From assembly GCA_949296605.1 (NCBI GenBank), contig CASFPB010000039.1, positions 7,766 through 71,765 of the forward strand: 64,000 bases of DNA. Reading direction: 5' to 3'. Made by a program: the position numbers and the translations under genes. A model generated the notes under the pieces. The model saw nothing but the letters and a program-made list of their open reading frames with translations. It searched no databases and was not told the origin of the DNA. Each line of letters opens with the position of its first letter. Position 1 is the stretch's first letter. Source of the stretch: an uncultured bacterium (GTDB taxonomy: Bacteria > Bacillota_I > Bacilli_A > RF39 > UBA660). Below, one piece after another: positions 4,583 through 44,682 of this stretch.

Positions 4583-4604
4583 AAAAAAAAAGACCGAAGT
4601 CTTT
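4583..4604 (-). terminator. Intrinsic terminator of gerE
   Basis: Minus strand reads aagac-ttcg-gtctt followed by a T-run (plus-strand A-run 4583-4590). Confidence 0.65.
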
Positions 4605-4605
4605 A

Positions 4606-4812: not shown

Positions 4813-4886
4813 GATAATTCCTTTCTTAAATAAAATAACTTCATAATATTTTATGAAGTATATTTTTTTAAGTGAATTATTTTTAA

Positions 4887-11579: not shown

Positions 11580-11589
11580 GAAATAGAAA

Positions 11590-22038: not shown

Positions 22039-22317
22039 ATGGCTGTAAAGTTAAGATTAAAAAGAATGGGAGCTAAACAAAAACCTTTTTATCGTATAGT
22101 TGCTGCTGATTCAAGAAGTCCAAGAGATGGAAGATTTATCGAAACTGTTGGAACTTATAATCCAATTGCAAAACCAGCAGAAATAAAAATTAACAAAGAA
22201 GTTGCTTTAAAATGGTTAAATAATGGTGCACAACCAACTGATACAGTAAAAGCAATATTTAAAAACGAAGGTATAATGAAAGAATTTGCTGATTCAAAAG
22301 TAAAAAAAGGTAACTAA
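22039..22317 (+). CDS. rpsP: 30S ribosomal protein S16
   Basis: [38 protein letters not shown] gtgaggag lies upstream. The track start 22012 lies inside the promoter -10. Confidence 0.92.
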
Positions 22318-22319
22318 AT

Positions 22320-22565
22320 ATGAATGTAGTAGAATACACAGAATTTTTAGTGAAAGAATTAGTAAAAGATCCTGAATCTATTAAAGTAGAATGCTTTGAA
22401 TCTGATGAAGATACAAAAATAATTGAAATAATAGTTTCTGAAAATGATATGAAAAATATCATAGGTAAAAATGGAAAAAATGCATCAGCATTAAGAACAA
22501 TAATTCAAGCCTTTGCTTATGTAAAAGGAATGAAAAAATTAAAAATTAACATCGATTCATATTAA
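22320..22565 (+). CDS. khpA: KH-domain RNA-binding protein (YlqC/KhpA)
   Basis: 81-aa protein with the KH motif IIGKNGKNASALRTI. Conserved position directly after rpsP. Confidence 0.8.
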   Translation: MNVVEYTEFLVKELVKDPESIKVECFESDEDTKIIEIIVSENDMKNIIGKNGKNASALRTIIQAFAYVKGMKKLKINIDSY

Positions 22566-22673: not shown

Positions 22674-25600
22674 ATGGAACAAATATTTTGGGATAACTTC
22701 AAAAATACAGATAAATTATTAATTTTAGATTATGTAGGTAGGCTGCCACTGATATACCAAAAAGCATTACAGGATTGCTATGGTGAAGATTATAATGAAT
22801 TATTAAAAAAGGGAGTTAAACTTATTGATGCCAAAAAAGCTATAAAAAAAATTAATTATTTAATTAATAATCCTAATTATTATGTGCGTGCAACAAATTA
22901 TAATTCAGCTAAAAATTTAAATGGAGAAATAACAGTAAGTGGTGGTAAGCAAAAAGAAGTATATTTAAAAGAAAAAATAAATTGTGATGAAAGCATTTTA
23001 AAAAGAATATCAATAATTTTTAGATTAAATCCAGAATTTAAAATTTTGTATAAATATTTCGGTATAAATTTAGACAAAAGTATTGATGAATTTGAATTGC
23101 CAAGAGAAGATTATGAAACATTAAAAAAACTTTATAAGAATCTTAATGATTTTATAAGTAATAAATCAATTTTAATAAGAAACATTTTAGGTTTAACATA
23201 TAGTGAATTTGTATCTTATTTTGAAAAAGAATTAACGACAAATCCAAAATTAAAAAAATTAAAAAAGCTATGTAAAAAGACCATAATTACTGAGCCTATA
23301 AACTTATTGGATATAGATGATAAAACATTTTTAAGTATAATTAAATGTATTTATTGTTTAAAACCAAATATATTAGTGAATCAAATACTTGCAAATAATA
23401 AATTTAATATTACGTTACAAGAGTTCTTAGATGCAAATGAAAAAGAAATGGATTTTATATTATCCAAAAATGAAAATACTGATGTAGGTAACACTTTAAA
23501 AAATTTATGGCAAGACGATTACACAAAATTATGTATTGATAAAAATAATGATTCTATAAACGAATTAGTAACGATATTAAATGTTCTAATTAATGATTTA
23601 TTTTCATATAGATATTTAATTAAAGTTAAAACATTACAAGAAATATTGGAAGCAACAGAAGAAGAAATAGATTTTTTAAAAAATAATTTATCAAAAGAAA
23701 CATCTTCATATAAAATTATTTCAAAAGTATTTGGAAGTAACTTTAGAGGAACAAATGAGTTAAGATATATGTTGCATGGCAAAGATAATGAAGCATATCA
23801 TAATGCATTATTAAATTTGAAATTAAAACTAAGTAATTATAGAAATGGAAAATCTAGAAAATTTAAAACATTACAAGAATTATTAGGGGCATCAGAAGAA
23901 GAAATAGATTTTTTAAAAAAATATATTAATGATAATTATGAAAAATTTGCTATTATTATTAAAGTCTTTGGGAAAGAATTAAATGGGACAAATGAATTTT
24001 ATAAATATTTAAGCGCCGAAGAAAAAGTAGCATATTCTGAAAAAATTCATATTTTAAGAATAAATTTACAAAAGTTTAGAACAGGAAAATTACATGAATA
24101 TAAAAAATTAAAAGATATATTAAATGTATCAGAAGAAGAAATAGAACACATAAAAAAATACTATCCTAAAACAACAAAAGGCTATCAAATTTTATTAAAA
24201 GTATTTGGAGAAAATTTGGATAATGATGACTCATTATACTGTAATTTATTAGACAAAGAAAAAAATTTATATCGATATACATTGCAAGCTTTAAATATGT
24301 TTTTAAAAGATGGCATTAAAAAATATAAAACTTTACAAGAAATACTTGAAGCAACAGAAGAAGAAATGGAATTTTTAAAACAAAAATATCCTAAAAATAC
24401 AAAAAATTATATTTTGCTTATAAAAGTATTTGGAAATAATTTTGAAAATTCAAATTATAATTATGACAAACTAAATGGGGACGAAAAGAAAAAATACAGA
24501 AGTGCTTTAAAATCAATAAGGAAATTTTTAGAAAAACATAGAAAAAATTTAATAAAAAATGGTAAAACATTAGCCGAAATAATAAAAATATCACCAGAAG
24601 AAATTGAATATATAAAACAACAATATCCTAAAAATACAAAAAACTATAAAATTATAGTTAAGGTATTTGGCATAGAATTAAAGGACACAAATAAAAAATT
24701 AAATTATTTAACCAACGAAGAAAGAAAAACCTACTATAACGCTCTAAATTGCTTAAAAAGATTTATTAAAAGAAGTGAAACAAAGTGTAAACCTAAAACT
24801 TTACAAGAGTTATTAAATGCAACAGAAAAAGAAATAGATTTTTTAAATAAAAAAATATCTAAAAAAACAAAGACTTATACTATATTATCAAAAGTATTTG
24901 GTAATGATTTTAAAAAAACAAATGAATGTTATGATAGTTTAACAACACTAGAAAAAAGAACTTTTTCACAGACAATAATAAGATTAAAAAGCCTTTTAGA
25001 AAAATACAGAGAAACAAAGAAATTTGATTTTAAAACACTTTCCCAAATATTAGGCGCGACAAAAGAAGAAATAGAATTTTTGATGGATGAAACAGATAAA
25101 AGTTCAAAAATTTACAAAGTGATTTTAAAAGTATTTGGAGAGGATTTTGAAGGAACTAACGAAAAGAAGTTTTTATTAAATAATGAAGAAAAAAAGACAT
25201 ATAATAATGCAATATCATCATTAAAAGCTAGATTAAAAAATTATAGGAAAAATAAAAATATTAAATATAAAACTTTACAAGAAATACTTGAAGCAACAGA
25301 AGAAGAAATAGACTTTTTAAGTGAAATTACTCCTAAAAAAACTAAAAATTATGTTGTTCTTGTTAAAGTTTTTGGAGAAAGTTTTAAAGGAACAAATGAA
25401 CTATGTGAACAACTAACTGATGAAGAGAAGGTAACTTATTTTGCAGCAATAAAATCATTATCAGTAAGGCTAAAAAAATATCGTGACAATGGAAAAGATT
25501 ATAAAACCTTGCAAGAAATACTAAATGCAACAGATGAAGAAATAGAATATCTAAATGAAATTTATCCACAAAATACAAGAAGTTATCAATTTTTGGTAAG

Positions 25601-26081
25601 TATGTTTGGAATTGATTTTAGAAATATAGGAAATTTGAATAAATTATCTAGTGAAGCAAATATGTTGTTAAATGATACGATAGCAATATTACAAACATAT
25701 TTATGTATGCAAAGAGAAAATACGAAAGATGGAAATTTACAACAAATCGAAACAGAAGGCCCTGTTGAAATTTTAACAAGTAAAGAATATACAACGGTGG
25801 AAACACCATTTAAACATCCATTTTTTAAAGAATTTTTAATATTACTACCTATTGAATATCAATATATTACAGCATTAAGATTAGGTTTAGTATATGATGA
25901 AAAAATTCATTCCATTGAAGAATTAGCGGAAATATTTAATATTGATATTGAAACCGCAAGAAAAAGATGTTTAAAAGGAATAAACATATTTATATTAATA
26001 ATTGAAAAATATAAAGAATTGTATAATCAAAACATCCCCAATATTGATGCGCTAATAGAAAACATAAAATTAGTTTTATAG
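22674..26081 (+). CDS. Giant helical-repeat protein (1135 aa), sigma-less paralog: FW-x-NF linker module, degenerate repeats, 9 clear ~75-79 aa repeats, C-terminal sigma-region-4-like HTH
   Basis: Uninterrupted 3.4-kb ORF with RBS aaagga. The repeat consensus is KTLQEILxATEEEIxFLK..Y.IL.KVFG..F..TN.....L..EEK..Y..A...L...L..YR. The C-terminus reads TPFKHPFFKEFLILLPIEYQYITALRLGLVYDEKIHSIEELAEIFNIDIETARKRCLKGI. Confidence 0.85.
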   Translation: MEQIFWDNFKNTDKLLILDYVGRLPLIYQKALQDCYGEDYNELLKKGVKLIDAKKAIKKINYLINNPNYYVRATNYNSAKNLNGEITVSGGKQKEVYLKEKINCDESILKRISIIFRLNPEFKILYKYFGINLDKSIDEFELPREDYETLKKLYKNLNDFISNKSILIRNILGLTYSEFVSYFEKELTTNPKLKKLKKLCKKTIITEPINLLDIDDKTFLSIIKCIYCLKPNILVNQILANNKFNITLQEFLDANEKEMDFILSKNENTDVGNTLKNLWQDDYTKLCIDKNNDSINELVTILNVLINDLFSYRYLIKVKTLQEILEATEEEIDFLKNNLSKETSSYKIISKVFGSNFRGTNELRYMLHGKDNEAYHNALLNLKLKLSNYRNGKSRKFKTLQELLGASEEEIDFLKKYINDNYEKFAIIIKVFGKELNGTNEFYKYLSAEEKVAYSEKIHILRINLQKFRTGKLHEYKKLKDILNVSEEEIEHIKKYYPKTTKGYQILLKVFGENLDNDDSLYCNLLDKEKNLYRYTLQALNMFLKDGIKKYKTLQEILEATEEEMEFLKQKYPKNTKNYILLIKVFGNNFENSNYNYDKLNGDEKKKYRSALKSIRKFLEKHRKNLIKNGKTLAEIIKISPEEIEYIKQQYPKNTKNYKIIVKVFGIELKDTNKKLNYLTNEERKTYYNALNCLKRFIKRSETKCKPKTLQELLNATEKEIDFLNKKISKKTKTYTILSKVFGNDFKKTNECYDSLTTLEKRTFSQTIIRLKSLLEKYRETKKFDFKTLSQILGATKEEIEFLMDETDKSSKIYKVILKVFGEDFEGTNEKKFLLNNEEKKTYNNAISSLKARLKNYRKNKNIKYKTLQEILEATEEEIDFLSEITPKKTKNYVVLVKVFGESFKGTNELCEQLTDEEKVTYFAAIKSLSVRLKKYRDNGKDYKTLQEILNATDEEIEYLNEIYPQNTRSYQFLVSMFGIDFRNIGNLNKLSSEANMLLNDTIAILQTYLCMQRENTKDGNLQQIETEGPVEILTSKEYTTVETPFKHPFFKEFLILLPIEYQYITALRLGLVYDEKIHSIEELAEIFNIDIETARKRCLKGINIFILIIEKYKELYNQNIPNIDALIENIKLVL
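23628..25740 (+). repeat. Nine in-frame tandem coding repeats, period 225-237 nt
   Basis: Unit starts (K-T-L codons) fall at 23628, 23865, 24102, 24327, 24564, 24795, 25032, 25269 and 25503. A 47-nt perfect direct repeat occurs at 24321-24367 and 25263-25309. Confidence 0.9.
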
Positions 26082-26093: not shown

Positions 26094-29000
26094 ATGAAAA
26101 ATAGTATTTTATTATATCAGCTTATGCAAGAATATGGTTTTTATAATAAATCAAGTGAATTTTATATTGAAATTATAAAAAAATATGAAATAAATGGCGA
26201 AGTTAATAGACAAGACATAATAAAAATTAGAGAAAGTATATTAAAAAAAATAAAAGGGGATATAAAGAATTTAAATATTGATTGGCTTATAAAGTTGTTC
26301 TTAAAAGTTAAAACGTTAAGTGATTTATCAAAGTTATTAAATTTATTAAATAAATATAATATAGTTTTAGATTTTAGTTTAATTGAAAATTTAATAAATA
26401 ATAATTCGCAAGTTGATGCTTTAATATTTAACTTTTTAAAAAAAGGAAAAAATATAACAATTTCATATATAGATAGAATTAGTGATAATGAGTTAGTAAC
26501 TGAACTTTTAATTGCCTATGCAACTATAAAAAATATCTTAACAAATGAATCAGAAAAAGAAGCAAACGAATATTATGAAGATGAAACTAAAAATTCTAAA
26601 ATTGATGATTCAATAGGCATGTATTTAAAAGAAATAGGTAGCATACCATTATTATCAAAAGAAGAAGAACTTGAATTATTTAAAAAGATAGAAATGGGCA
26701 GTAAACAAGCAAAAGATAGAGTAATTGAAGCAAATTTACGTCTAGCAGCTTCTATTGCCAAAAAATATTTGAACAAAGGTTTAGGGCTACAAGACCTTAT
26801 TCAAGAAGGAAATATAGGGATTATGAAGGCAGTAGAAAGGTTTGATTATAAGAAGGGATACAAATTTTCTACTTACGCAACTTGGTGGATTAGACAAACT
26901 ATTACAAGGGCAATAAGTGAACAATCTAGAACAATTAGAGTGCCAGTTCATATGAGTGAAGATATAAAAAACTTACATATAGCTAAAAATAATTTATCAA
27001 TTAAGCTAAATAGAGAACCAACTATTGAGGAAATTGCAGAAGTATTAAACATGACTTCAGATAAAGTATTAGAAATAATTAGATTTGACACAGAAACATC
27101 AACAGCATCATTAAATGCTACAGTTGGTGATGAAGATGATTCAGAGCTAGGGAATTTCATTGAAGATACTTTTTTTGAATCGCCAACAAAAACATTTGAA
27201 CAAAAAGATTTAAGTATTAGATTAAATGAAATGCTTAATGAGTTAAAAGATAGAGAAAAATCGGTTATAATGTATAGATTTGGTTTAATAAATGGAAAAC
27301 CTTATACACTTGAGGAAATAGGTATAATATTTAATGTTACAAGAGAAAGAATAAGGCAAATAGAAGCAAAGGCATTAAGAAAATTAGGTAACCCTGTAAG
27401 AGCTAAAAAAATAAAAGATTATTATGAATTTGAAGATGTTGATTGCAGAATATCAAAAGGATTTTGGAATAATTTTGCACATTATACAAAAGATATTGTT
27501 TTTTTAATAATTGATAATGATCTTGAAGAAAATTTAAAAAATGCACTATATGGAGTTTTCGGAAAAGATTTATCAAAAGTAAAAATTAAAAATTCAAGTG
27601 AAACAACAAAAGCAATAGAAGCAATTGAAGCAATTAAAACAATTTTAAAAACAAAAGATCAAAGTCAATACGAAATAACTTTACAAGAATATTTAAAAGC
27701 AACCGATGAAGAATATGAAAATTTAAAAAAGATTATTATATGTTCTTCTTACTGTGAAATATTATCAGAATTATTTGGTAGTAATTTTGATCAACCAAAA
27801 TCAGGTATAATAGCATCGCCAAGTAATGAGGCAACTTATTATAATATTGCATTTTGTTATTTAAAAAATTGTTTAAATAAACGATGCGAAGTTCTACCTG
27901 AATTTAGATTAGGAACGCTACAGGAGATACTTAATGCAAGCAAAGAAGAAATAAAATATTTAAAAGATAGCGTATTAAGTAAAACGGCTAACCGTTCTAT
28001 AATAATAAAAGTTTTTGGAAATAACTTAGATCAAATAAATTCAGGTTATTATGAATTAGAATATAGTGAAAAAAATAAATATTTTAAATCTATTTCGTAT
28101 TTAAAAAAAGAATTAACTAATTACAGAAAATTAAATTCAAGTAATAATATAACTTTGCAAGAAATACTAAATGCAACTGATGAAGAAATGTTATTTATAA
28201 AATGTAAAATTATAAATGATTCTTATTTTCAAATAATATTAAGAGTTTTTGGAAATGAATTAAATCAAACAAATAAAAGCTTTAATGAATTAAGCGAAGA
28301 AGAAAAAATAGAATATAATAAATGTATAAGAAGTTTAAAAGACAAAATACGAGGATTTAGAGTATTTAACAATAATAGAAGAAATTTGCAAAAGTATTTA
28401 AACGCATCTGATGAAGAAATGGTTTATTTAAATCAAACGTATATAGCTTCAGCAAAATTAAAAAATATTATCTATGGAATATATGGTGAAAATTTAAACG
28501 AATTTAACGTTTATTTTTACGCTAGCTTATCTGATAAAGAGTTATTTAATTATAGTTCATTTATAACAAATTTGCAAAAAAAATTAGAAAAACATCGCCA
28601 TGAGCAAAAAGATTGTAAAACTATTCAAGAACTTTTAGAACTATCAAATGAAGAATTAGAATTAATTAGACTTTATTATATAAATAAATCAGATAGATAC
28701 CAAATATTAATAGAAGTATTCGGAGAAAATTTAGACCAAACAAATAAAATAGTTTGTTCATTTAATAATCATAAAAATCAAACCTATAATAACGCTTTAA
28801 ATGATTTAAGAAAAACAATAAAAACGCATAGAGAAATAGTAGGCGTTGGAAAAACTATTTTTGAAATTTTAAATATGTCAATTGACGAATTTAATTTGAT
28901 TAAACAAAACTTTTCACAAAATTTTGCAAATTTTAATGTTTTAATAAAAGTATTTGGGGATAATTTTGATAAAACCGATGAAAACTATCATAATTTATCA

Positions 29001-29699
29001 ATTGAAGAAAAAGTAGAATATATTAAAGCATTAGAAGAGTTTACTAATTGTTTGATATCTGTTAGAACATACAAAACTAAACATCAAACATTACAAGAAA
29101 TACTGGGAGCTACAGAAGAAGAAATAGCATTTATAAAAGATAATTATCCACAAAATACAAAAAATTATGATATTTTAGTCAAAGTCTTTGGCATAGATTT
29201 CACAAATAATAATTATAATCTAACTGAATTAAATGATTTTGAGAAAGGTCAATACTACCGAGCAATAAATTGTTTAAGAAAATATTTAAAAAATTATAGG
29301 AAAGGTAAAAATAAATTACCTAAAAAAGAAGAGTCAAAATTACCAAATGATACTACTAAAATAGATAAACAAGATGACATAGAATATTTGGATGCATTAC
29401 CTGATATAAATTTAAATGAAATTAAAACACCTTTTACGCATCCATATTTTCAAGAATTTATTAATATTTTACCAGAAGAGTATCGTATTATAACTGCTAA
29501 AAGAATGGGATTAAGTGATGGTTGCATCCATTCTTTAACAAGCCTAGCAAAAGAATTTAAAATAAGTCCAAAAGAAGCTTATGATAAATGCGAAAATGGT
29601 ATAGCATTATTTATATTTATAGTTAAAACATACCAAACCACATTTAATAAAGAATTACCAATTTTAGATTTAGATATGTTATTAAAACGTCTTATATAA
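26094..29699 (+). CDS. Giant sigma-70 fusion protein (1201 aa): novel N-domain + complete SigA/RpoD-like regions 1.2-4.2 + 7 helical repeats + second, C-terminal sigma-region-4-like HTH
   Basis: Strong RBS aaaggagga, 12 nt after the upstream stop. The sigma core (nt ~26604-27427) has [77 protein letters not shown] and [28 protein letters not shown]. It is then followed by ~760 further aa. Confidence 0.88.
27675..29320 (+). repeat. Seven in-frame tandem coding repeats, period 231-237 nt
   Basis: The T(L/I)Q-E-I-L codon anchors fall at 27678, 27915, 28152, 28383, 28620, 28854 and 29088. The unit is the same as in 22674..26081. Confidence 0.85.
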
Positions 29700-29702: not shown

Positions 29703-30395
29703 TTAAATATTTTTGTTTTTAATAAATTCAGTGAGCATTTTAGTAAGTGCTCTTTTTTCAATTCTAGAAACATAACTTCTAGATATTTTTAACTCTTTTG
29801 CTATTTCTTTTTGCGTCATTTCCTTAGTATTAAATAATCCATATCTTTTAACTATAATTTCTTTTTCTCTATCATTTAAAAGATTTAGATATTTATTTAA
29901 TAAATTAATATTGTTTTTAATTTCAAGTTGGTCAAATAAATCTTTATCCTTATCTTTTATTACATCTATTAAGCTTATTTCATTTCCATCTTTATCATAC
30001 CCAATAGCATCATTTAAACTAACAGTAACATTAACATGTTTATTAGCTCTAAAATGCATTAATAATTCATTTTGAATACATCTAGCAGCATAAGTAGTAA
30101 TTTTTGTTTTTTTATCATTATTATATGTATCAATTCCTTTAATAAGACCAATAGTTCCAATACTTATTAAATCATCAGTATCAACATCTTTGGTATCAAA
30201 CTTTTTAACTATATGTGCAACCAAACGTAAATTGTGCTCAATAAGTTTATTGCGAGAATTCTTATCTCCATTTAACATATCATTTATACATTTTTCTTCT
30301 TCTATAGCATTAAGTGGTTCAGGAAAAACATTATTAGAATAGCTTCCTGTAAAAAATAACATATCTTTAATAATATTAAACAAATTAAATAACAT
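29703..30395 (-). CDS. sigK: Sporulation sigma factor K precursor (pro-sigma-K), uninterrupted
   Basis: YSNNVFPEPLNAIEEEKCI..GDKNSRNKLIEHNLRLVAHIVKKF..DDLISIGTIGLIKGIDTY..TYAARCIQNELLMHFR matches SigK rather than SigE (HNLRLVAHIVKKF). It carries a ~20-aa hydrophobic pro-sequence. The ATG at 30395 follows RBS agaggtg; the track start 30401 is a GTG inside the RBS. Confidence 0.85.
   Translation of the reverse strand: MLFNLFNIIKDMLFFTGSYSNNVFPEPLNAIEEEKCINDMLNGDKNSRNKLIEHNLRLVAHIVKKFDTKDVDTDDLISIGTIGLIKGIDTYNNDKKTKITTYAARCIQNELLMHFRANKHVNVTVSLNDAIGYDKDGNEISLIDVIKDKDKDLFDQLEIKNNINLLNKYLNLLNDREKEIIVKRYGLFNTKEMTQKEIAKELKISRSYVSRIEKRALTKMLTEFIKNKNI
29733..29758 (+). terminator. Plus-strand intrinsic terminator for the giant-repeat operon, embedded in the 3' coding end of sigK (opposite strand)
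   Basis: Stem gagca(t)(29733-29738)/(g)tgctc(29747-29752) followed by a 6-T run (29753-29758). Confidence 0.5.
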
Positions 30396-30419
30396 AAACA
30401 CCTCTATACTTTATTTTAT

Positions 30420-30447
30420 TTGCAATTTTGAAATAATATGTTAAAAT
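30420..30447 (+). promoter_or_regulatory. Extended -10 promoter for the third giant sigma-repeat gene (divergent from sigK)
   Basis: ttgcaa (30420-30425), 16-nt spacer ending TGn, taaaat (30442-30447). It lies 28 nt upstream of the ATG at 30475. Confidence 0.5.
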
Positions 30448-30474
30448 ATATAACTATTACTGGGGGAATTAATA

Positions 30475-32802
30475 ATGGATATAAGTGTGATTGTAGAAAA
30501 ATTAAGTGAAGAATTTTCTTTTTACAATAAACCATACGAATATTATTTTAAAATATGTAATGAAATATTATGTGATGATGCAAATTTAATGTATAAATTT
30601 TGTTATGAAAAAGTAGTTTTAGATATAAAAAACGATTGGAAAAGTTTAAAAATTGGTTGGTTTATTGCAATATTTAAAGAAAATTTAAATGGAATGTTAG
30701 AAATATTAACTAAATTTGGATTAGTGATAGATAATACTAATTTTAAGCAAATTATAAAAAAATATCCTGATTTTGAAAATGTTTTAAGTGATTTAGTAGA
30801 AAATGATGCTTACTTAGATGAAAATGAAACATTAAAAAAACTAATTAAATTATACTTAAGTTATACAGAAAGCAAAATGAAAAATAAACAAGATAAGGAT
30901 ATATTATTGTGGGAAGAACAATTAGAAATATTTAAGATTTTAAAAGAATTAAGTAAAGAACCAGAAAAAAATAAAACTTTCATAGCTTATTATTATGATT
31001 TACTAGTAGAGCAATATAAAAATTTTGTTCGATCCCTAATACCAAAATATGAACAAGAAAAAGTAGAATATGATGATTTAGTTCAAGAAGGATTCATTGG
31101 ATTAATTAATGCAATTAGAAATTTTGATTATACAAAGGGTTATAAATTTTCATCATATGCTTATGTTGTTATAAAAAACGTTATTAGGAAATACATAAAT
31201 AAAAACATTAGATCAATAAGAATTCCTGATTCAATGTTAAACGATTATTTTAGAATAATATATACTCAAAGAGATTATTATATGTTAAATGGAAAAGAAG
31301 CAAGCGAAGAAAAACTATCAGAAATGTTAGGTATGTCAATAGAAAAAATTAGAAATGTTTTAATGTGCTGTGAAGATACAATATCATTATATGATTCTTT
31401 GGGTAGGGGACCAGAAGAAGCAGAATATACTTTATTATGTGCAATAAAAAATGAATCGTCCCCATTACCAGATGAAATATATGAAAGAAAACAAATAAAT
31501 TTGATGATAGAAGAATTGTTTAGTGTTTTAACAGGCATTCAAAGAAAAGTAATTGAACAATATTTTGGATTTTATAATCAAAAACCTAAATCAATTCAAA
31601 ATATAGCAGATGAACTTGGTTGTTCAAGAGAAAATATAGATCAAATAAGAAGTAATGCATTAAAACGAATGAGAAAACACCTAGCTGATAAAAAGAATAA
31701 TGATTTAAATACCTTTAGTAAATTTTCGTTAAATACAAATTATTTTTGGTATAACTTTATAGGCTTTAAAAAGTCAGATGTATTAGAAGCTATAAACGAA
31801 CTTGTAAATGAAAAAAAATTAAGTGAATTAGAGCAAAAATCCTTAATTGATAGATTTGGTAAAAAATATAATTTATTAAATAAAGTAGATGAAGAAACAA
31901 TAAAAGTTGTTAGTGTATCTATAGAAAAGATAAAAGAAAAACTTCTTGAAATACGAAAACGAAAATCGATGTTAAAAACAAAGATTGAAATAGGTAGTTT
32001 AATGGATATTTTAGATGCAACGATTGATGAAATAAAATATCTTAGATCAACTAGGAAAAAAGATAGTAAAAGCATAAATTTACTTACTAGATTATTTAAT
32101 GATGATTTTTTAAGAGAAGGATTAATACCAGTTTATTTAAGTAAAACTGAATTAAGAACTTATTATTCTGCTATAAGTGCATTAAGAGAATCATTAAAAC
32201 TTTATAGAAAAAAAGAAGAAACTAAAAGATATTACTTTGGCTTAACATTAAAACAAATATTAAATATAACTACTGAAGAAATTGAATTTTTAAAAAGAAC
32301 AATTAATCCTAAATCTGCTTATTATTCAGTATTAACTAAATGTTTTGGAACTTCATTAGAAGAAGAAAATAAAAATGAAAAATTGGATGAAAAAGAATTA
32401 AAATTATTAAAAATTGCTATAAGCAAAATGGAAGTATTAATTTTTTATTATAGAGAAGAAGAAACTAAAAGACTATTAAAAATCTATAGCTATTTTAACA
32501 TGCCTGAAGAAACTAATGAAAAAGTTGTTACACCATTTAGCAACCCAAGATTTAAATTGTTTATTCAATGCTTACCTGATGAGCTACAAATTATAACAGC
32601 GATGAGAATCGGAGCTGATAATGGCGTTATTAAATCGATATTTGAAATTGCAATGTATTTAAATGAAGATGAAGAAGAAGTAAGAAGAAAATGTGAAATA
32701 GGAATAAATTTGTTTAAAACGTTAGTAAGTGAATATAAAAATGAGTATGAAAATGATTTTGAAACATTTTTAATACAAAGTAGAAAAAAATACGGTAAAT
32801 AA
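30475..32802 (+). CDS. Giant divergent sigma-70 fusion protein (775 aa): N-domain paralogous to 26094 gene + divergent sigma regions 2-4 + FW-x-NF linker + 2 repeats + C-terminal sigma-region-4-like HTH
   Basis: RBS ggggga upstream. Region 2 reads DDLVQEGFIGLINAIRNFDYTKGYKFSSYAYVVIKNVIRKYI, where the Trp dyad is replaced by VV. Region 4 reads LTGIQRKVIEQYFGFYNQKPKSIQNIADELGCSRENIDQIRSNALKRMRKHL. The C-terminus reads TPFSNPRFKLFIQCLPDELQIITAMRIGADNGVIKSIFEIAMYL. Confidence 0.85.
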   Translation: MDISVIVEKLSEEFSFYNKPYEYYFKICNEILCDDANLMYKFCYEKVVLDIKNDWKSLKIGWFIAIFKENLNGMLEILTKFGLVIDNTNFKQIIKKYPDFENVLSDLVENDAYLDENETLKKLIKLYLSYTESKMKNKQDKDILLWEEQLEIFKILKELSKEPEKNKTFIAYYYDLLVEQYKNFVRSLIPKYEQEKVEYDDLVQEGFIGLINAIRNFDYTKGYKFSSYAYVVIKNVIRKYINKNIRSIRIPDSMLNDYFRIIYTQRDYYMLNGKEASEEKLSEMLGMSIEKIRNVLMCCEDTISLYDSLGRGPEEAEYTLLCAIKNESSPLPDEIYERKQINLMIEELFSVLTGIQRKVIEQYFGFYNQKPKSIQNIADELGCSRENIDQIRSNALKRMRKHLADKKNNDLNTFSKFSLNTNYFWYNFIGFKKSDVLEAINELVNEKKLSELEQKSLIDRFGKKYNLLNKVDEETIKVVSVSIEKIKEKLLEIRKRKSMLKTKIEIGSLMDILDATIDEIKYLRSTRKKDSKSINLLTRLFNDDFLREGLIPVYLSKTELRTYYSAISALRESLKLYRKKEETKRYYFGLTLKQILNITTEEIEFLKRTINPKSAYYSVLTKCFGTSLEEENKNEKLDEKELKLLKIAISKMEVLIFYYREEETKRLLKIYSYFNMPEETNEKVVTPFSNPRFKLFIQCLPDELQIITAMRIGADNGVIKSIFEIAMYLNEDEEEVRRKCEIGINLFKTLVSEYKNEYENDFETFLIQSRKKYGK
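31996..32480 (+). repeat. Two in-frame copies of the helical repeat unit (period ~249 nt)
   Basis: SLMDILDATIDEIKYLRS...LLTRLFNDDF... and TLKQILNITTEEIEFLKR...VLTKCFGTSL... Confidence 0.7.
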
Positions 32803-32843
32803 CATTAATTATGATATACTATTAAAGGATGGAGAAGAAAAAT

Positions 32844-35396
32844 ATGGTAAAAAAACTGATTTTAATAGATGGAAATAATTTAATGTTTAGAAGTTATTAT
32901 GCAACTGCATATAGTGGGAATATGATGAAAAACTCAAAAGGCATGCCAACCAATGCCTTGTTTGGTTTTGTATCAATGATTAATAAAATTATCAATGAAG
33001 AAAATCCCAAGTATATTGCAGTTGCTTTTGACATTGGGAAAAACTTTCGTAAAGAACAATATGATTTTTATAAAGAAGGAAGACAACAAACACCTGATGA
33101 ATTAAAAGTTCAAATGCCAATAGCTAGAAAAATTCTTGATGCTATGAATATTAAACATTTTGAACTAGAACCTTATGAAGCTGATGATATAATTGGAACT
33201 ATAGTAAAAATGACAGAAGAAGATAAAGATTTTGCAAGTGTAATCGTATCTAGTGATAAAGATTTACTTCAATTAATAAGTGAAGAAACAGAAGTAAAAT
33301 TATTAAAACAAACAGGATTTATAAGATATGACTATAAAACATTTGTAGATGATTATAAAATTGAACCAATTAGAATAATTGATTTAAAAGCATTAATGGG
33401 AGATAGTTCTGATAATATTCCTGGCGTTAAAGGGATTGGCGAAAAAACAGCATTAAAATTACTTCAAGAATATAAATCACTAGAAAATTTATATGATAAT
33501 GTTGAAAATGTTACTGGTAAAACAAAAGAAAAATTGATAAATGATAAAGAAAATGCATTTATGAGTAAAAATATTGCTACAATTTATAGAGATGTTCCAT
33601 TAAATATTAATTTAGAAGATTTAAAGTTTGATTTAAAAGATGATACAAAATTAAAAGAAATATATAATGAGTTAGAATTTTATTCATTATTAAAAACTAC
33701 AATTGTAAAAAAAGAAGAAGTAAAAATAGAATATAAAGAAATAACTTCAATAAGTGAACTTAATTTAAATGAAAAAATAGCAATTTATTTAGAATTAGAT
33801 AATGAGAATTATCATAAAGCAAATCAAGTATGCTTAACAATTACCGATGGGAAAAATAATTATTATGTAAAAAAAGATTTAATTAAAGATGTATTAGATT
33901 TAATTAAAGATAAAAATATAATAACTTATGATACTAAAAAAATAATAGGTAATACAAAAATATATATAAATTCAAGTTTTGATGTATCAATTGCTGGTTA
34001 TATTTTAAATTATAATATTAAAGATGATTTAGCATTTTTAGCTAATCAATTAGATTATCAAATAGAATTTTTTGATGTTTCAAAGAAAAATAATTTTGCA
34101 AATAAAGAAGAAGTAGTAAAAAAGTGTTTGTTTTTATATGATATAGAAGAAAAATTAGAAAATAAATTAATTGAAGAAAATCAAATAGATTTATTTAAAA
34201 ATATTGAAATGCCATTAATTAATGTGTTAGCTGATATGGAAATAACAGGTATTAAAGTTGATGAAAATGAATTAAAGAAAATGGGTGAAGAATTTACTGT
34301 TAAATTAGAACTATTAGAAAAAGAAATATATAATTTAGCAGGAATAGAATTTAATATTAATAGTCCTAAACAATTAGGTGAAATACTATTTGACAAATTA
34401 CAATTAGCTAAGGGCAAGAAAAATAAAACTGGTTATAAAACAGATGTTAAAGTTTTAGAAAAACTTGCTGAAAACTATCCAATCGCTGAAAAAATTCTCG
34501 AATATAGAGGACTTGCAAAATTGAAAAACACCTATATTGATGGCTTAGAAAATTGCATTTTAAACGATGGTAAAATACATACTATATATAAACAAACTTT
34601 AACTAGAACTGGAAGATTATCATCAACTGAACCAAATTTACAAAATATACCAGTTAGAGATGAATTAGGAAGAAAAATAAGAAAAGCATTTGTCCCTTCA
34701 AATGACTTACTGCTTAGTGCTGATTATTCACAAATAGAACTTAGAATTCTTGCACACATATCTAAATGTCCTAAGTTAATTCAATCTTTTATTGATGGAT
34801 TAGATATTCACACAAAAGTTGCAAGTGATATTTATGGAATAAACAAGGAAGAAGTTACAAAAACAATGAGAAGAACTGCAAAGGCTGTAATATTTGGTAT
34901 TGTATATGGAATTAGTGGCTTTGGTTTAGGAGAAAATCTACATATATCTAGAAAAGATGCTGAAAGTTTTATAAATAAATATTTTGAAATTTATCCTGAG
35001 GTAAAAAAATATACAGAAGATATAGTTAAATATGCTCATGAAAATGGTTATGTTAAAACTTTATTTAATAGAAAAAGAATATTAGATGAAATCAATAATC
35101 CTAACTATATGATAAAAAGTATGGGAGAAAGAATGGCAATGAATACCCCAATTCAGGGAACTAGTGCAGACATAATGAAGATGGCTATGATTAATGTCCA
35201 TCATAGATTTAAAAAAGATAACATTGAAAGTAAAATTTTATTACAAGTCCATGATGAAATAATAGTTGATGTAAAATTAAATGAATTAGAACAAGTTAAA
35301 AAAATAATAAAAGAAGAAATGGAAAACGTATATAAATTAGATGTTCCATTAAAAGTAGAAATTGATACTGGAACAAACTGGTATGAAGCAAAATAA
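32844..35396 (+). CDS. polA: DNA polymerase I
   Basis: 5'-nuclease N-terminus LILIDGNNLMFRSYYA and pol motifs DYSQIELRILAH, RRTAKAVIFGIVYG and QVHDEII. The ATG at 32844 follows RBS ggatggag. Confidence 0.92.
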   Translation: MVKKLILIDGNNLMFRSYYATAYSGNMMKNSKGMPTNALFGFVSMINKIINEENPKYIAVAFDIGKNFRKEQYDFYKEGRQQTPDELKVQMPIARKILDAMNIKHFELEPYEADDIIGTIVKMTEEDKDFASVIVSSDKDLLQLISEETEVKLLKQTGFIRYDYKTFVDDYKIEPIRIIDLKALMGDSSDNIPGVKGIGEKTALKLLQEYKSLENLYDNVENVTGKTKEKLINDKENAFMSKNIATIYRDVPLNINLEDLKFDLKDDTKLKEIYNELEFYSLLKTTIVKKEEVKIEYKEITSISELNLNEKIAIYLELDNENYHKANQVCLTITDGKNNYYVKKDLIKDVLDLIKDKNIITYDTKKIIGNTKIYINSSFDVSIAGYILNYNIKDDLAFLANQLDYQIEFFDVSKKNNFANKEEVVKKCLFLYDIEEKLENKLIEENQIDLFKNIEMPLINVLADMEITGIKVDENELKKMGEEFTVKLELLEKEIYNLAGIEFNINSPKQLGEILFDKLQLAKGKKNKTGYKTDVKVLEKLAENYPIAEKILEYRGLAKLKNTYIDGLENCILNDGKIHTIYKQTLTRTGRLSSTEPNLQNIPVRDELGRKIRKAFVPSNDLLLSADYSQIELRILAHISKCPKLIQSFIDGLDIHTKVASDIYGINKEEVTKTMRRTAKAVIFGIVYGISGFGLGENLHISRKDAESFINKYFEIYPEVKKYTEDIVKYAHENGYVKTLFNRKRILDEINNPNYMIKSMGERMAMNTPIQGTSADIMKMAMINVHHRFKKDNIESKILLQVHDEIIVDVKLNELEQVKKIIKEEMENVYKLDVPLKVEIDTGTNWYEAK

Positions 35397-38575: not shown

Positions 38576-39733
38576 GTGCAATTTAGAGATTATATAGAAT
38601 TACCTGATGCTAGTGGTAATAATTTTTATTATCATCCAGAACAATTAACTCCAATAAAAGAAGAAATAGAAGAATTTTTAACATTAAGTCCTGAAATATC
38701 AGATTTACACTTAGCTAAAAAAGTTTTATTTTCTCACGAAATACAATCAAATAATCAAGTTGAAGGTTATGGTTATGATGTCAGCCTAATAGAAGATGTT
38801 ATAAAAAGGAAAACTCAAAGAGTAAAAAGTGAAGTTGTTAAAAGAAGAATAGAAAATCTTTATCGAGGATATCAATATATTTTAAGACATAGAAAAATAG
38901 ATGAAGAACATTTAAGAGAATTATATCAAATATTAAGTAAAGATTTGATTGAATATAGAGACTTAATTAGAATGGGAGAATATTATAGGACTGATACAGT
39001 TTATATTTTACGTAATGGCAGATTACATGATAGCGCAATTGATGAAGGAGTTTTATGGACACAGATTCCATATTTAATTGGAAAATATTTTGAATTTTTA
39101 CATTCTTTAAGTTTTAATGAATCTATGACTGATGAATATATAAAATCCCAAATTATGCATTTTTATTTTGTGTTTATTCATCCATATTTTGATGCAAATG
39201 GAAGAACTTCAAGAACTATGGCCTTATGGTATTTGTTAAATAAGAAAGATTATCCTTTTATAATATTTAATCGTGGAATTAGTTTTGCAGGTGCAAAATA
39301 TGGTAAATTAATTGCTGATGCAAAAGATACAAAAGATTTAACAAAATTTTTAAATTTTATGTTAGAAACAGTAAAATTAGAAATGGAAAAAGAAACTGTA
39401 ATGCAAACAATAGCTAATAATTGTAATCATAGATTAAATGGAGTAGATTATCAAACACTTTTATATTTTTTAAGTATGAAAAGAAATAAAACAGTAACTG
39501 ATTTTGCGGCGTTCTATAACCAAAAAAATGAAAAGAAAAGAGTATTTGAAATATATAAAGAAATGATTTTACCTTTGATTGAAATGGATATTTTAGAAGT
39601 AGTAGGGTATTCTAAAAAAATGTTTTCCCCAGATTTAAATAATATGTTTTTAGAATTAAATCCTCAAATAGTTCCAAAAGAGGAAGATATGCAATTAAAA
39701 AGATTGAAAGTATTTCAATCTTCTAAAAAGTAA
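38576..39733 (+). CDS. Fic family protein (AMPylase-type)
   Basis: Catalytic motif HPYFDANGRTSR (HxFx[DE][AG]NGRxxR) and an N-terminal Fic_N-like helix ..NNQVEG... GTG start follows RBS aaggggga. Confidence 0.85.
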   Translation: MQFRDYIELPDASGNNFYYHPEQLTPIKEEIEEFLTLSPEISDLHLAKKVLFSHEIQSNNQVEGYGYDVSLIEDVIKRKTQRVKSEVVKRRIENLYRGYQYILRHRKIDEEHLRELYQILSKDLIEYRDLIRMGEYYRTDTVYILRNGRLHDSAIDEGVLWTQIPYLIGKYFEFLHSLSFNESMTDEYIKSQIMHFYFVFIHPYFDANGRTSRTMALWYLLNKKDYPFIIFNRGISFAGAKYGKLIADAKDTKDLTKFLNFMLETVKLEMEKETVMQTIANNCNHRLNGVDYQTLLYFLSMKRNKTVTDFAAFYNQKNEKKRVFEIYKEMILPLIEMDILEVVGYSKKMFSPDLNNMFLELNPQIVPKEEDMQLKRLKVFQSSKK

Positions 39734-41145: not shown

Positions 41146-42174
41146 TTAGTTTTTAATTGCTTTTTTGTTTGTCCAAATTTTAATATATATTAACATAAAT
41201 AATAAAATCATAAATATAAATAGTATAGTAGGAAAACTTTTATATATTATCATTGAATTATAAAAGTTATTAGCAGTATATTGATTAACTATAATTAATA
41301 GTATTAGATTTATTAAAAATGGTATATAACTTTTTTTAACATTTATAATATTTTTAATCTTTAATGAACTAACTGACATACAAATAAATATATCAAAAAA
41401 CCATCCTACTGAAATAAAATTTTCAATATTTTCAATAAATTTGAAAAAGCTTATTTTTCTTAAAACAGAATACTCAGGATAACTATAAATATTTACTAAG
41501 TTTCCTAAAACAATTGTTAAAGTTAACACTACTACTAGAATTGTAAATGAACTAATTAAATAATATTTTAAACTGTTTTTAAAGTCTATATTTTCATCTA
41601 CTAATGTGATAAATGGAGCAGTAGATAAAATTGCAAATATTAAACTAGTTTTAAATATATTAGTAGGTTTAGTAGTAAAAAAGGGAAGTAAATTATTAAA
41701 ATCAAATTTATTTGTCAAAAGACAAGTTTTTAAAATAATTAAAACAATACTTATAACAAATAATATTTGGGCAACATATATTATCTTTTTTATAGATTTT
41801 GTGTTTAAAAAAGATGCTAAAAATATGAATGGTAAACAAGAAATAATTGATGGAGTAAATGGAAGGAAATATGAATATAAAAAAGTGGATAAAATAATTA
41901 GTAAGACAAAAATTCCAAATAAAATGAAACCTATTAGTATAATTTTAATTATAATGCTTAAAATAGAATCATTTTTTAAAAATGAGCTTAAAGGCATATT
42001 TATCTTTTTTTTAAAATAATTTATTAAATAAATTACAGCGATTCCTAAAAGTGAACCTAATATCACTGAAATGTATGCATCTTTATCACTGTATAAAAAT
42101 AAAATTGAAATACCACCACCTAAAAACAAACTACGAGCTAAAAAGTAAGTTAAAATATTAGAATTATTTTTCAT
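41146..42174 (-). CDS. Spore germination receptor B subunit (GerKB/GerAB-type permease-like)
   Basis: About 10 TM segments and the last gene of the A-C-B operon. ATG at 42174 follows RBS gaggtg. Confidence 0.7.
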   Translation of the reverse strand: MKNNSNILTYFLARSLFLGGGISILFLYSDKDAYISVILGSLLGIAVIYLINYFKKKINMPLSSFLKNDSILSIIIKIILIGFILFGIFVLLIILSTFLYSYFLPFTPSIISCLPFIFLASFLNTKSIKKIIYVAQILFVISIVLIILKTCLLTNKFDFNNLLPFFTTKPTNIFKTSLIFAILSTAPFITLVDENIDFKNSLKYYLISSFTILVVVLTLTIVLGNLVNIYSYPEYSVLRKISFFKFIENIENFISVGWFFDIFICMSVSSLKIKNIINVKKSYIPFLINLILLIIVNQYTANNFYNSMIIYKSFPTILFIFMILLFMLIYIKIWTNKKAIKN

Positions 42175-43240
42175 CGTGCACCTCATAAATTAAACCCTTT
42201 TTATTAATATTGAAATTAATATTACTTTTTATTTTTAAATTTAACCAATAATTTTCTTCTTTTTCTCTAGTTTTTTGATAATAGCTTTTTGATAATCCTA
42301 AAATATCACTCTTATATTTTTGAATTTTTTCTAAAAAGTTATTAAGTTTATTATTCATTATATTAGTAAAATCATTATTTAAATTATTTAAAACTTCTAA
42401 ACTTCTTATATCATAATTAGTTTCATTATCCATTATCTTTCCTTCTAAGCCACCTTCAACAAAAATCTTATTATCTGATATATATGTTTTTGTATCACCT
42501 GATATAATAGCTACAGAAAAATACAGATTATCGTATTCTTTAGAAAAAATTGGACGATAAAAATTATTTGTTAATATATTATAAATAGTAGCTTCATCAT
42601 TATTTAGTTTTTCTTTAAATTCATATTCATCAAATATTAATAAACCATCTATTTTAAATTGTTCATCATTTAAAGTAATATTTGAAAAACAAGTATCAAT
42701 ACCAAAAGTTATAATTTCATCAATCACTTGATCAAATGTTTTCATAACACTACTATTTGATGAATAATTATTACTTTCTAAAAGAGATATAATACTTGAA
42801 CTAACTACAGGATTATTTTTAGTAGTGTTATTAAGTATTTCTTTTGGAGATGAATCAATTGATGAAATAACGTAAAAATTTTCTCTAAAATATGTGCTTC
42901 TTATAAAATAATCAATTATAGTTTGAAATTTATCCTGAATAATAGAATCACTCAAAATCATTAATTTAACATGAGTATAATTTGCTTTATCTGCAATTAA
43001 ATCAGCAGTTTTTTCTATTGCTTTAGCAAGTGATTTATCACTATTTGTTTTAGTATATGAACTAATTTTAGATGATTCTTTATCACCAGAATCATTTAAT
43101 ATTTCTAATGTGATAATATATTTATCATCCTCATAATCAATTCCAATAGCACTAACAATACCTAAATTATTTACTTCTTGATAATCATAACAGCCGGAAA
43201 GTAAAAAAATAAAAGTAAGTAATAAAATTGCTTTTTTCAT
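42164..43240 (-). CDS. Spore germination receptor C subunit lipoprotein (Ger(x)C)
   Basis: Lipobox LLSGCY. NLGIVSAIGIDYEDDKYIITLEI is the typical GerAC N-terminus. RBS aaaggagga upstream. Confidence 0.8.
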   Translation of the reverse strand: MKKAILLLTFIFLLSGCYDYQEVNNLGIVSAIGIDYEDDKYIITLEILNDSGDKESSKISSYTKTNSDKSLAKAIEKTADLIADKANYTHVKLMILSDSIIQDKFQTIIDYFIRSTYFRENFYVISSIDSSPKEILNNTTKNNPVVSSSIISLLESNNYSSNSSVMKTFDQVIDEIITFGIDTCFSNITLNDEQFKIDGLLIFDEYEFKEKLNNDEATIYNILTNNFYRPIFSKEYDNLYFSVAIISGDTKTYISDNKIFVEGGLEGKIMDNETNYDIRSLEVLNNLNNDFTNIMNNKLNNFLEKIQKYKSDILGLSKSYYQKTREKEENYWLNLKIKSNINFNINKKGLIYEVHDEK

Positions 43241-44682
43241 TCTTTATCCTCCTTTTGTTTAATGATATTTTTATGAGTAAATAAGGTCGAGCGTTTAACA
43301 TCCTTTTTAATTGAAGATTTTAATACGGAGTTATTAAAGTAAGTTTTTTCAAATGGAGCTATCGGAGCAAAGTAAGGTTTTTTAAAACTTGTTATATTTG
43401 TGGTATAAATTAGAAAATATAAGAAACCTAAGGTTAGACCATATAATCCAAAGAAACCAGCTAGAATAATAAAAATAAATCTAAAAAATCTTAATGAATT
43501 ATTTATCTCAACATTAGTAAATGTTAAACTAGAAATAAATGTAATAGCAATAATAATTATCGTAATAGGGGATGCTATACCAGCAGAAACAGAAGCTTCA
43601 CCCAAAACAATTGCACCTAAAATGGATATAGCTGAACCATAATTTGAAGGAAATCTCAAATCGCTTTCTCTTAATATTTCACAAACTAATAGCATTAAAA
43701 TTGTTTCAATAATGGTTGGAAAAGGAACTCCATTACGCTGGATTGCAAAATCAATTAAAAGGTTAGTAGGTATAGTTTCTTGATTATAATTCATTATTGC
43801 AATGTAAAGTGCCGGCGCCATCATTGAAATAAAATAAGCAAAAAATCTTAAAATTTTAATAAAATTTATATTTTTACTTTTATTGTAATTATCAATATTT
43901 GGATTAATAAAATCTATAAAAAAAGCTGGAATAATCAAAGCATATGGAGAAGTGTCAATAACTAATGCTATTTTTCCTTCTAGTAAAGCAGTAGCTACCA
44001 TATCTGGCCGTTCTGTTTGTAAAAATGTAGGATATACATTTTTGGTTTCTTCATCTAATAAAAAACCTATAGAACTAGAATCAATAATCCCATCAATATC
44101 AATATTATCTAATTTTTTTAATATTTCTTTTACTAAATCCTCATCGGTAATATCATCAAAATACAAAACTCCAACATTAGTGTTAGTTTTTCTACCTATA
44201 ATTCTATTTTCAATTTTTAAATGACTAGATTTAATTCTTCTTTTTATTAATCCCACATTTATTTGATAATTTTCTGTAAAAGAATCTTTAGGACCATTAA
44301 TAGAAGTTTCAACATCAGCATTAGAAATACTTCTATTTATATCTGCTCTAGTTTCTACTGCAACAATTACATCTTTAAAAATAACAATTGTAAAACCATT
44401 TGTTAAATAAAACTCAATTTCATCTTCCGAAACATTTTTTTTAGTATTTGGTCCTGCTAAAAAAGATAATAAATTTTGTTTATTTATTTTATTATTAGTT
44501 TTTCCTATAATAATATTTTTAAGTATATAATCATTAATTTTATCACTACCACTAACTGTTTCTAAATAGACAACGTATAAAGTATTTAACAAATTTAATT
44601 TTATTTCTTTGATAATTAAATCTGGTGTTTTATTAAATTCTTTTTTTACTCTTTCAACTATTTTATTCAAGGTTATCACCAT
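43237..44682 (-). CDS. Spore germination receptor A subunit (GerKA/GerAA-type)
   Basis: Soluble N-domain plus 5 C-terminal TMs. Contains RADINRSISNADVETSINGPKDSFTENYQINVGLIKRRI and ERPDMVATALLEGKIALVIDTSPYALIIPA. Confidence 0.85.
   Translation of the reverse strand: MVITLNKIVERVKKEFNKTPDLIIKEIKLNLLNTLYVVYLETVSGSDKINDYILKNIIIGKTNNKINKQNLLSFLAGPNTKKNVSEDEIEFYLTNGFTIVIFKDVIVAVETRADINRSISNADVETSINGPKDSFTENYQINVGLIKRRIKSSHLKIENRIIGRKTNTNVGVLYFDDITDEDLVKEILKKLDNIDIDGIIDSSSIGFLLDEETKNVYPTFLQTERPDMVATALLEGKIALVIDTSPYALIIPAFFIDFINPNIDNYNKSKNINFIKILRFFAYFISMMAPALYIAIMNYNQETIPTNLLIDFAIQRNGVPFPTIIETILMLLVCEILRESDLRFPSNYGSAISILGAIVLGEASVSAGIASPITIIIIAITFISSLTFTNVEINNSLRFFRFIFIILAGFFGLYGLTLGFLYFLIYTTNITSFKKPYFAPIAPFEKTYFNNSVLKSSIKKDVKRSTLFTHKNIIKQKEDKE

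Follow-up and report, generated by a model that had tools for sequence, protein, structure and literature searches.

Gene C is located at 30475..32802 on the forward strand (+) of a 64,000-nucleotide (nt) stretch of DNA (hereafter the window; positions 7,766 to 71,765 of contig CASFPB010000039.1, assembly GCA_949296605.1), which is chromosomal DNA (~23% G+C) of a spore-forming member of the Bacilli. Its open reading frame encodes a protein of 775 amino acids (aa) with sigma factor regions 2 and 4 and a weak region 3, and is a divergent member of a family of giant sigma factors, two further members of which, paralogues A and B, lie in the same window. In the protein encoded by gene C, two valines stand in the columns of the tryptophan dyad W433/W434 of Escherichia coli sigma70. 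Judging from its sequence, we consider it moderately probable that C is a functional alternative sigma factor with weak intrinsic melting activity and a narrow set of promoters that are not of the sigma-A type. A changed promoter specificity is clearly favoured over the role of a sigma-like decoy, which had been raised as an alternative in a model's reading of the DNA alone (hereafter the sequence-only reading).

The sigma core of gene C and its valine dyad

Gene C belongs to the sigma-70 superfamily, as its regions 2 and 4 both score above the curated thresholds: region 2 (aa 177-244, 31003..31206, +) matches PF04542 with 66.5 bits (gathering threshold, GA, 24), and region 4 (aa 349-401, 31519..31677, +) matches PF04545 with 45.1 bits (GA 24.1). 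Region 3 (aa 263-305, 31261..31389, +) is weak, with 24.9 bits against PF04539 (GA 25.3); the alignment of C with sigma factors in the Protein Data Bank (PDB) runs unbroken through this region, and the AlphaFold2 (AF2) model has helices at aa 252-300. Furthermore, C passes the generic sigma-70 model TIGR02937 of NCBIfam (98.6 bits, cut-off 42.9). A phmmer search against PDB aligned aa 177-410 nearly gap-free to SigA of C. difficile (7l7b_F, E 5e-30), and the Foldseek matches of the AF2 model (pLDDT 76) are sigma factors in holoenzyme structures. The homology of the segment to region 2, assumed in the sequence-only reading, is thus confirmed by both profile and PDB alignment.

The best NCBIfam models for C are those of RpoD (152 bits), SigA (142) and RpoS (129), and all three scores are far under the curated cut-offs; of the group 1 equivalog models, NF006666 gives 120.9 bits versus a cut-off of 572, and TIGR02393 gives 152 versus 354. 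The group 3 models are missed as well, namely TIGR02980 (SigB/F/G; 100.5 versus 234 bits), NF004471 (SigK; 78.6 versus 252) and TIGR02479 (FliA; 75.2 versus 189.6). Both hallmarks of groups 1 and 2 are absent from C, which has no Pfam match to the region 1.2 model PF00140, matched by B, and carries V231/V232 instead of W433/W434. Nor does C stand in the housekeeping dnaG-sigA context, as it is located between sigK and polA.

V231-V232 (31165..31170, +), assigned to the dyad columns by translation and alignments, lie within the segment KGYKFSSYAYVVIKNVIRKYI (aa 221-241, nt 31135-31197), in which C reads YAYVVIKN and paralogue B reads YATWWIRQ. All the peptides quoted in the sequence-only reading are present where it had placed them, and its statement that WW is replaced by VV and RQ by KN is correct. 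In primary-like sigma factors, the W433/W434 wedge is regarded as invariant, and WW was found in 359 of 373 RpoD/SigA-like database matches outside the family (about 96%). The VV of C is real and not a sequencing error: YAYVVIKN is kept in three clusters of orthologues, which are 90-97% identical and 775 aa long throughout, and at the related loci L001 and L008, and a 56-member cluster drawn from dozens of independent assemblies has the gene undisrupted, with the full 775 aa. Among the 14 listed members of this cluster, the dyad is VV in 11, VL in one and IV in one, the remaining member being a fragment; the positions vary only among V, I and L, and are therefore constrained to aliphatic residues.

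Gene C is under purifying selection. The ratio of nonsynonymous (dN) to synonymous (dS) substitution rates of the whole gene is 0.23 for the window versus L001 and 0.17 for the window versus L008; that of the sigma domain is 0.22 and 0.19, respectively, and selection on this domain is no weaker than on the remainder of the gene. The lowest dN/dS within C, 0.10, was obtained for the terminal domain in one comparison. The corresponding values are 0.25 for B, which is on a level with C (window versus L008; the comparison with L001 was discarded with its repeat region out of register), 0.06-0.10 for polA and 0.08-0.10 for sigK, and dN of C exceeds that of sigK, polA and fpg. It was also observed that dS is uneven along the gene, being 0.045 for aa 1-414 and 0.215 for aa 415-775 between the window (30475-32802) and L008 (14406-16733), a pattern that points to recombination or mosaicism of the repeats and the terminal domain. 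In addition, one protein (P0121, 397 aa) holds aa 244-451 of C at 87% identity with both flanks unrelated; it is probably an assembly chimera, and could be a real domain shuffle.

The divergence at WW and RQ pointed out in the sequence-only reading is real, but it is not limited to these residues. A set of 58 reference columns was defined by at least 90% conservation across 93 group-1-like representatives; only 32 of these are kept in C, against 53 in B. Those kept in C include the core-binding motif DLVQEG (D201-L-V-Q-E-G206), F217, Y223, F225 and Y228 of region 2.3, the residues G222, R246, I248, R249 and P251, and R385, E386 and Q390 of region 4.2 (E. coli R584, E585 and Q589). F217, Y223, F225 and Y228 correspond to E. 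coli F419, Y425, F427 and Y430, which we take to be the holders of the flipped -11A. In E. coli numbering, region 2.3 also shows the conservative changes E420D and R423K. The other changes include W433V and W434V, R436K, Q437N, T440R and R441K in region 2.4, H455S and E458N in region 3.0, and R586N and R588D in region 4.2, the last of which is thus retained but diverged, as had been read from the sequence. Presumably, positions 437 and 440 read -12, H455 and E458 contact the extended -10 element, and positions 586 and 588 read -35. The substitutions in C concentrate at such base-specific promoter contacts (regions 2.4, 3.0 and 4.2), and are therefore the signature of a new specificity and not of a dead sigma factor. 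The identity of C to every other member of the family is about 27-31%, and in a neighbour-joining tree of the sigma cores its branch is very long and clusters with further long ones, a placement that is probably due to long-branch attraction and from which no orthology is drawn.

Possible function of gene C and the alternatives

The decoy idea presupposes that WW is required for a sigma factor to work. However, the dyad is a feature of groups 1 and 2 only, and is absent in functional group 3 and extracytoplasmic function (ECF) sigma factors: sigma28 is active with I79/R80 in these columns (PMC12784957), Mycobacterium tuberculosis SigH has R84/I85, and most ECF sigma factors are without the dyad (bioRxiv 10.1101/534826). 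The SigK encoded next to gene C, with R-C in the aligned dyad columns, lacks it as well, and thus the premise fails. It has been proposed that a missing dyad entails weaker melting, which is offset by stringent promoters (bioRxiv 10.1101/534826), and the measured order of activity is WW > HW > QR (PMC10216364). By itself, the loss of WW in gene C is ordinary alternative-sigma evolution. The sequence-only reading had proposed a duplication followed by either a changed specificity or a loss of melting; the duplication and the divergence stand, and the substitutions fit the former outcome, but the inferred loss of open-complex formation is not supported.

We propose that after the duplication B would have kept the canonical primary-like determinants, and C would have neofunctionalised. 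Binding of C to the core RNA polymerase and promoter-specific initiation are predicted from the kept DLVQEG motif, the kept region 4 and the purifying selection; C would dock on the core through regions 2.2 and 4, and its retained region 2.3 aromatics would capture the flipped non-template -11 base. An aliphatic V, I or L would take the place of the Trp wedge, with region 1.2 lost, and the contacts would be altered at -12 (Q437N, T440R), in the extended -10 element (H455S, E458N) and at -35 (R586N, R588D). By analogy with group 3 and ECF sigma factors, C would be expected to melt DNA less efficiently and to use a stringent set of few near-consensus, non-sigma-A promoters.

Several points weigh against this proposal. 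The region 2.1 motif NLRLV has become YKNFV in C, N409 is replaced by F and region 1.2 is lost, changes that could weaken core binding or melting beyond what is typical of alternative sigma factors. The roles assigned to residues in E. coli numbering rest on general knowledge of sigma70 and not on tool output, and the AF2 model of C has a pTM of 0.27, so that the arrangement of its domains is not given by the model. Moreover, no orthologue of C exists at 35-90% identity, and long-term conservation of VV thus cannot be shown; no candidate regulon or promoter motif of C was identified either.

The loss of both tryptophans and of region 1.2 and the altered region 2.1 would also fit a sigma-like decoy or competitor, which binds the core, forms no open complexes and titrates the core from other sigma factors; substitution of the dyad in sigma-A is reported to lower activity severely (bioRxiv 10.1101/534826). 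We nevertheless regard a decoy as unlikely, and the step from lost WW to a decoy taken in the sequence-only reading as unsupported, since the dyad is normally absent from active group 3 and ECF sigma factors as well as from the neighbouring SigK, and since DLVQEG, the region 2.3 aromatics and R385/E386/Q390 are kept in an intact 775-aa protein with a dN/dS (omega) of about 0.2, which would be unexpected if the DNA contacts were dispensable. To our knowledge, there is also no precedent for a decoy with a sigma fold, which we count against it. Just as unlikely, in our judgement, is a vestigial sigma core in a protein whose selected function resides in the modules behind it (linker, repeats and sigma-4-like domain). 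Members without a sigma domain do exist in the family (A and a 696-aa protein of L004), and in one comparison the lowest dN/dS falls in the terminal domain (0.10); the sigma domain of C, on the other hand, with a dN/dS of 0.19-0.22, is not relaxed versus the rest of the protein, the number of repeats is the smallest in the family (two), and the key core-binding residues are retained.

That the best database matches of C are RpoD, SigA and RpoS, and not the group 3 models, could point to a redundant primary-like (group 2-type) sigma factor that reads sigma-A-type -35/-10 promoters less efficiently. As the curated group 1/2 cut-offs are widely missed (152 versus 354 and 121 versus 572 bits), other residues stand at the positions that read -12, the extended -10 TG and -35, and region 1.2 is absent, we hold such a role to be very unlikely. 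The very long branch, the low identity (about 27-31%) to all other members and a dN above that of sigK, polA and fpg might finally indicate a duplicate in decay (an incipient pseudogene) or an artefact of sequencing or assembly. This explanation is largely refuted and scarcely credible, since the 775-aa frame is intact throughout the 56-member cluster of independent assemblies with a dN/dS of 0.17-0.23, the promoter and the ribosome binding site (RBS) are conserved, and AF2 predicts the domains with confidence. A functional alternative sigma factor with changed promoter specificity therefore remains our preferred reading of gene C.

Modules outside the core and the family of giant sigma factors

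The N-terminal domain of C is all-helical (aa 1-140, 30475..30894, +; motif EFxFYNK..YY), and is supported by BLASTP to B, a match to P0123 (80 bits) and the AF2 model (pLDDT 80-89). BLASTP of C against B aligned the two proteins from residue 1 of both, with 27% identity over 673 aa (E 4e-40), and the paralogy of the N-domains claimed in the sequence-only reading thus holds. Behind the sigma core lies a helical linker domain (aa 423-498, 31741..31968, +; FWYNF...RFGKKYN; BLASTP, AF2 pLDDT 73-92), which is common to B and C and forms the N-terminus of A (beginning IFWDNF...). It is followed by two family repeats of ~78 aa (aa 508-578 and 591-660, 31996..32454, +; consensus KTLQEILxATEEEIxFLK...KVFG...), which score 54.5 and 61.9 bits with the repeat hidden Markov model (HMM) and form four-helix units in the AF2 model; the same HMM counts 11 copies in A and eight in B.

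The C-terminal domain (aa 684-761, 32524..32757, +; TPFxxPxFKxFIxxLPxE...) is a sigma-4-like helix-turn-helix domain, with the family consensus TPFKHPFFKEFIxLLPxEYQxITxLRLGLYDGxIHS... It matches the family's own region 4 profile in hhalign (probability 96%, E 2.5e-9), and Foldseek aligns it locally to region 4 of Taq sigma-A (1ku3; 55 columns, rmsd 2.0 A, TM 0.75); a Foldseek search with the model of repeats plus terminal domain returned nothing at E <1e-3 and only local sigma-4 matches. The domain is acidic to neutral, without a basic recognition helix; in A, B and C alike, it probably serves for protein interaction or regulation. No Pfam match was found for the isolated N-domain, repeats or terminal domain, and profile-profile comparisons of the repeat with region 4, of the repeat with the terminal domain and of the N-domain with sigma region 1.1 were not significant.

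The family was found by an exhaustive HMMER search, which matched P0123-P0131 and P0138, together with a genome scan with the terminal domain. The scan used a four-sequence alignment of that domain and returned eight loci, biased to members of the TPFKHPFF type; a word-index protein search with C gave only orthologues of at least 90% identity and generic RpoD. The giant sigma proteins are 700-1200 aa long, and consist of a helical N-domain (~140-165 aa, EFxFYNK..YF), a sigma core, a helical linker, 2-11 repeats of ~78 aa and a second sigma-4-like domain; C shows this architecture, with two repeats, and lies in the interval between sigK (-) and polA that is typical of the family. The hosts are metagenome-assembled genomes labelled 'uncultured Bacilli bacterium', Candidatus Onthocola stercoravium and a genome whose SigA is labelled 'Clostridium sp. 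CAG:609', with 22-29% G+C. Family clusters reach 249 members, and their hosts are common uncultured gut Bacilli that have low G+C and form spores. The roughly 180 cluster members inspected in the protein collection are all without a name, and nothing relevant was found in the literature on giant, repeat-bearing or duplicated-region-4 sigma factors.

The sigK-polA interval is a hotspot of the family, in which tandem arrays of paralogues occur, and the linkage to sigK is conserved in the window and in L001-L005, L008, L010-12 and L016. L002 and L003 have one canonical WW giant sigma gene in this interval. L004 encodes a protein of 1152 aa (WW), the sigma-less protein of 696 aa (10469-12559) and one of 1026 aa (YAIFWIRQ); L005 and L009 encode proteins of 1137 aa (WW), 280 aa (YATYHIKKK) and 848 aa (YAKWWIKEY); L007 encodes proteins of 931 aa (HW) and 521 aa (WW) and a divergent one of 551 aa; L010-12 and L016 encode a protein of 903 aa (YASFWINQ) followed by one of 746 aa (P0138, YAYASIRR); and the arrangement of L008 is the same as that of the window. 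In multi-copy genomes, one canonical or least diverged copy is accompanied by one or two more divergent ones, which keep 26-49 of the 58 reference columns, as seen for the 280- and 848-aa proteins of L005, the 551-aa protein of L007, the 1026-aa protein of L004 and P0138. Erosion of the dyad recurs in the family, giving NW, YW, FW, HW, AS and VV. P0138 (746 aa, 249-member cluster; L010 10001-12241, L016 4001-6241), with AS at the dyad, 49 of 58 columns and a canonical region 4.2, has by its sequence lost essentially only the Trp dyad. The 280-aa sigma factor (L005 8820-9662, L009 1008-1850) keeps 26 of 58 columns, stands alone without N-domain, repeats or terminal domain, and is encoded between two giant sigma genes.

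In one relative, contig ena:ERZ28749431:contig_6713 (956,474 bp) encodes dnaG-sigA-trmK at 361-374 kb, with a SigA of 368 aa including region 1.1, and sigK-903-746-polA at 668-678 kb. As a canonical dnaG-sigA is thus present on the same contig as giant sigma factors of the P0138 type, the family is accessory in that relative. This makes it probable, by extension, that B is an accessory sigma factor of the primary-like kind and C an alternative one that has diverged further. In the window's own genome, a canonical dnaG-sigA was sought and not found, the protein search being filled by SigA proteins of at least 92% identity. As a separate observation, P0128 (541 aa) and P0338 (441 aa; L013 3851-5176) are SigA proteins of the canonical type in which a segment, region 3-4 or region 2-3, is duplicated internally; P0338 is encoded in a normal dnaG-sigA-trmK operon, and the duplication is either an artefact or real.

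The locus, related systems and significance

The locus begins with rpsP (22039-22317) and a khpA-like gene encoding a KH domain (22320-22565), which are followed by paralogue A (22674..26081, +; 1135 aa), consisting of the linker, the 11 repeats and the sigma-4-like C-terminus, and paralogue B (26094..29699, +; 1201 aa), with regions 1.2, 2, 3 and 4, the WW dyad, the eight repeats and a sigma-4-like C-terminus. In the sequence-only reading C had been called the third paralog; A does share the post-sigma part, but it has no sigma domain, and to that extent the label is overstated. A ends 12 nt upstream of B, and the two are probably co-transcribed. Then follows sigK (29703..30401, -; NF004471, 312 bits, cut-off 252), which lies tail to tail with B at a distance of 3 nt; a terminator-like hairpin with a T-run is found at 29733-29752 (+), 34 nt past the stop of B and inside the 3' end of sigK. 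C is transcribed divergently from sigK, and the 79-nt spacer given in the sequence-only reading holds with the ATG start of sigK that is called in L001, the distance being 73 nt from the GTG start.

The spacer contains a candidate sigma-A-type extended -10 promoter, TTGCAA-N16-TGtTAAAAT (30420..30447, +), found by a consensus scan, and downstream of it an RBS, GGGGG, at about 30463-30467. The motif TTGnAA-N16/17-TATGTTAnAAT precedes the first giant sigma gene of the window, L001-L005, L008 and L010, a conservation that spans distant members of the lineage; the sigK/giant-sigma intergenic regions that carry it include 30396-30474 in the window, 2545-2623 in L001, 7462-7537 in L002, 6752-6826 in L003, 6755-6829 in L004, 5318-5387 in L005 and 7159-7232 in L010. 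As the same motif precedes the first gene after sigK, C therefore occupies the ancestral slot with an ancestral sigma-A-type promoter. A and B, on the other side of sigK, lie between khpA and sigK in the window's species; in L010, with the genes that precede the locus at 5594-6437, and in L016, the genes run rpsP-khpA-107 aa-sigK(-)-giant sigmas-polA. This suggests an insertion or relocation of A and B to the upstream side of sigK in the lineage of the window. At its 3' side, C is followed after 26 nt by polA (32829-35396) and then fpg, with no terminator before polA; judging from this arrangement, C is probably expressed from the sigma-A-type promoter and co-transcribed with polA.

Other genes of the window encode EzrA, ThiI and acetate kinase. 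The stretches 3650-5372 (-), 41146-44682 (-) and 38576-39733 (+) carry GerM-like and SpoIIIAH-like genes and a gerA-type receptor operon, as well as a gene for a Fic-domain protein; the sporulation and germination genes confirm that the organism is a spore-former.

Compared with known systems, C resembles group 1/2 sigma factors (SigA/RpoD, RpoS) most closely in sequence and structure: its regions 2-4 are colinear with SigA of C. difficile and Bacillus subtilis, and it retains the aromatics of region 2.3 together with the core-binding motif. It differs from them in the missing Trp dyad, the absence of a match to region 1.2 or 1.1, the change of 26 of the 58 columns, and the addition of a 140-aa N-domain and a 360-aa C-terminal extension with the repeats and the second sigma-4-like domain. 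With group 3 (sigma28/FliA, SigF/G, SigE/K) it shares the absence of the dyad and the altered specificity residues of regions 2.4 and 4.2, but it scores lower against group 3 models (100, 79 and 75 bits) than against those of RpoD. We know of no group 3 sigma factor with the size and accessory domains of C. ECF sigma factors with fused C-terminal extensions (such as ECF41, ECF42 and ECF56) offer an analogy only, in that a sigma core is joined to a C-terminal non-sigma module, which is thought to regulate activity (reviewed in PMC8999054 and PMC7671368). However, these are two-domain group 4 sigma factors with extensions of the SnoaL, TPR or zinc-finger type, whereas the core of C is group-1-like with three domains, and its helical repeats are unrelated to those extensions; C matched no ECF-specific model, apart from the generic superfamily model TIGR02937. 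Another large sigma-70 protein, MzaA of the MZA anti-phage system (about 726 aa), was considered because both its NCBIfam and PADLOC models match C. The candidate was rejected: NF041931 gives 114 versus 800 bits and covers the sigma core only (aa 179-415), the PADLOC match (65 bits) is likewise confined to the core, and no Mza partner genes lie nearby in the chromosomal context rpsP-khpA...sigK...polA-fpg.

A more speculative reading, to which we give a low probability, is that the giant sigma factors could form a new class of self-regulating modular sigma factors, in which the repeats and the non-basic sigma-4-like domain would serve as a built-in anti-sigma or partner-docking module. C (VV) and P0138 (AS) could then be melting-deficient and rely on the help of another protein or on promoters that are already melted or supercoiled, perhaps in connection with sporulation via the sigK linkage; the repeats and the terminal domain might, for instance, imitate region 4 at the beta-flap or attach to the sigma-less A.

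The family itself is more interesting than the lost dyad of gene C. It provides a natural series of group-1-like cores with stepwise erosion of the dyad (WW, HW, YW, FW, NW, AS and VV), and thus a comparative system for the share of the wedge in melting and for the compensation of its loss. It also shows that sigma factors can bear long repeat arrays and a duplicated sigma-4-like domain, and it is this repeat array with its second sigma-4-like domain that is the part likeliest to hold something new.

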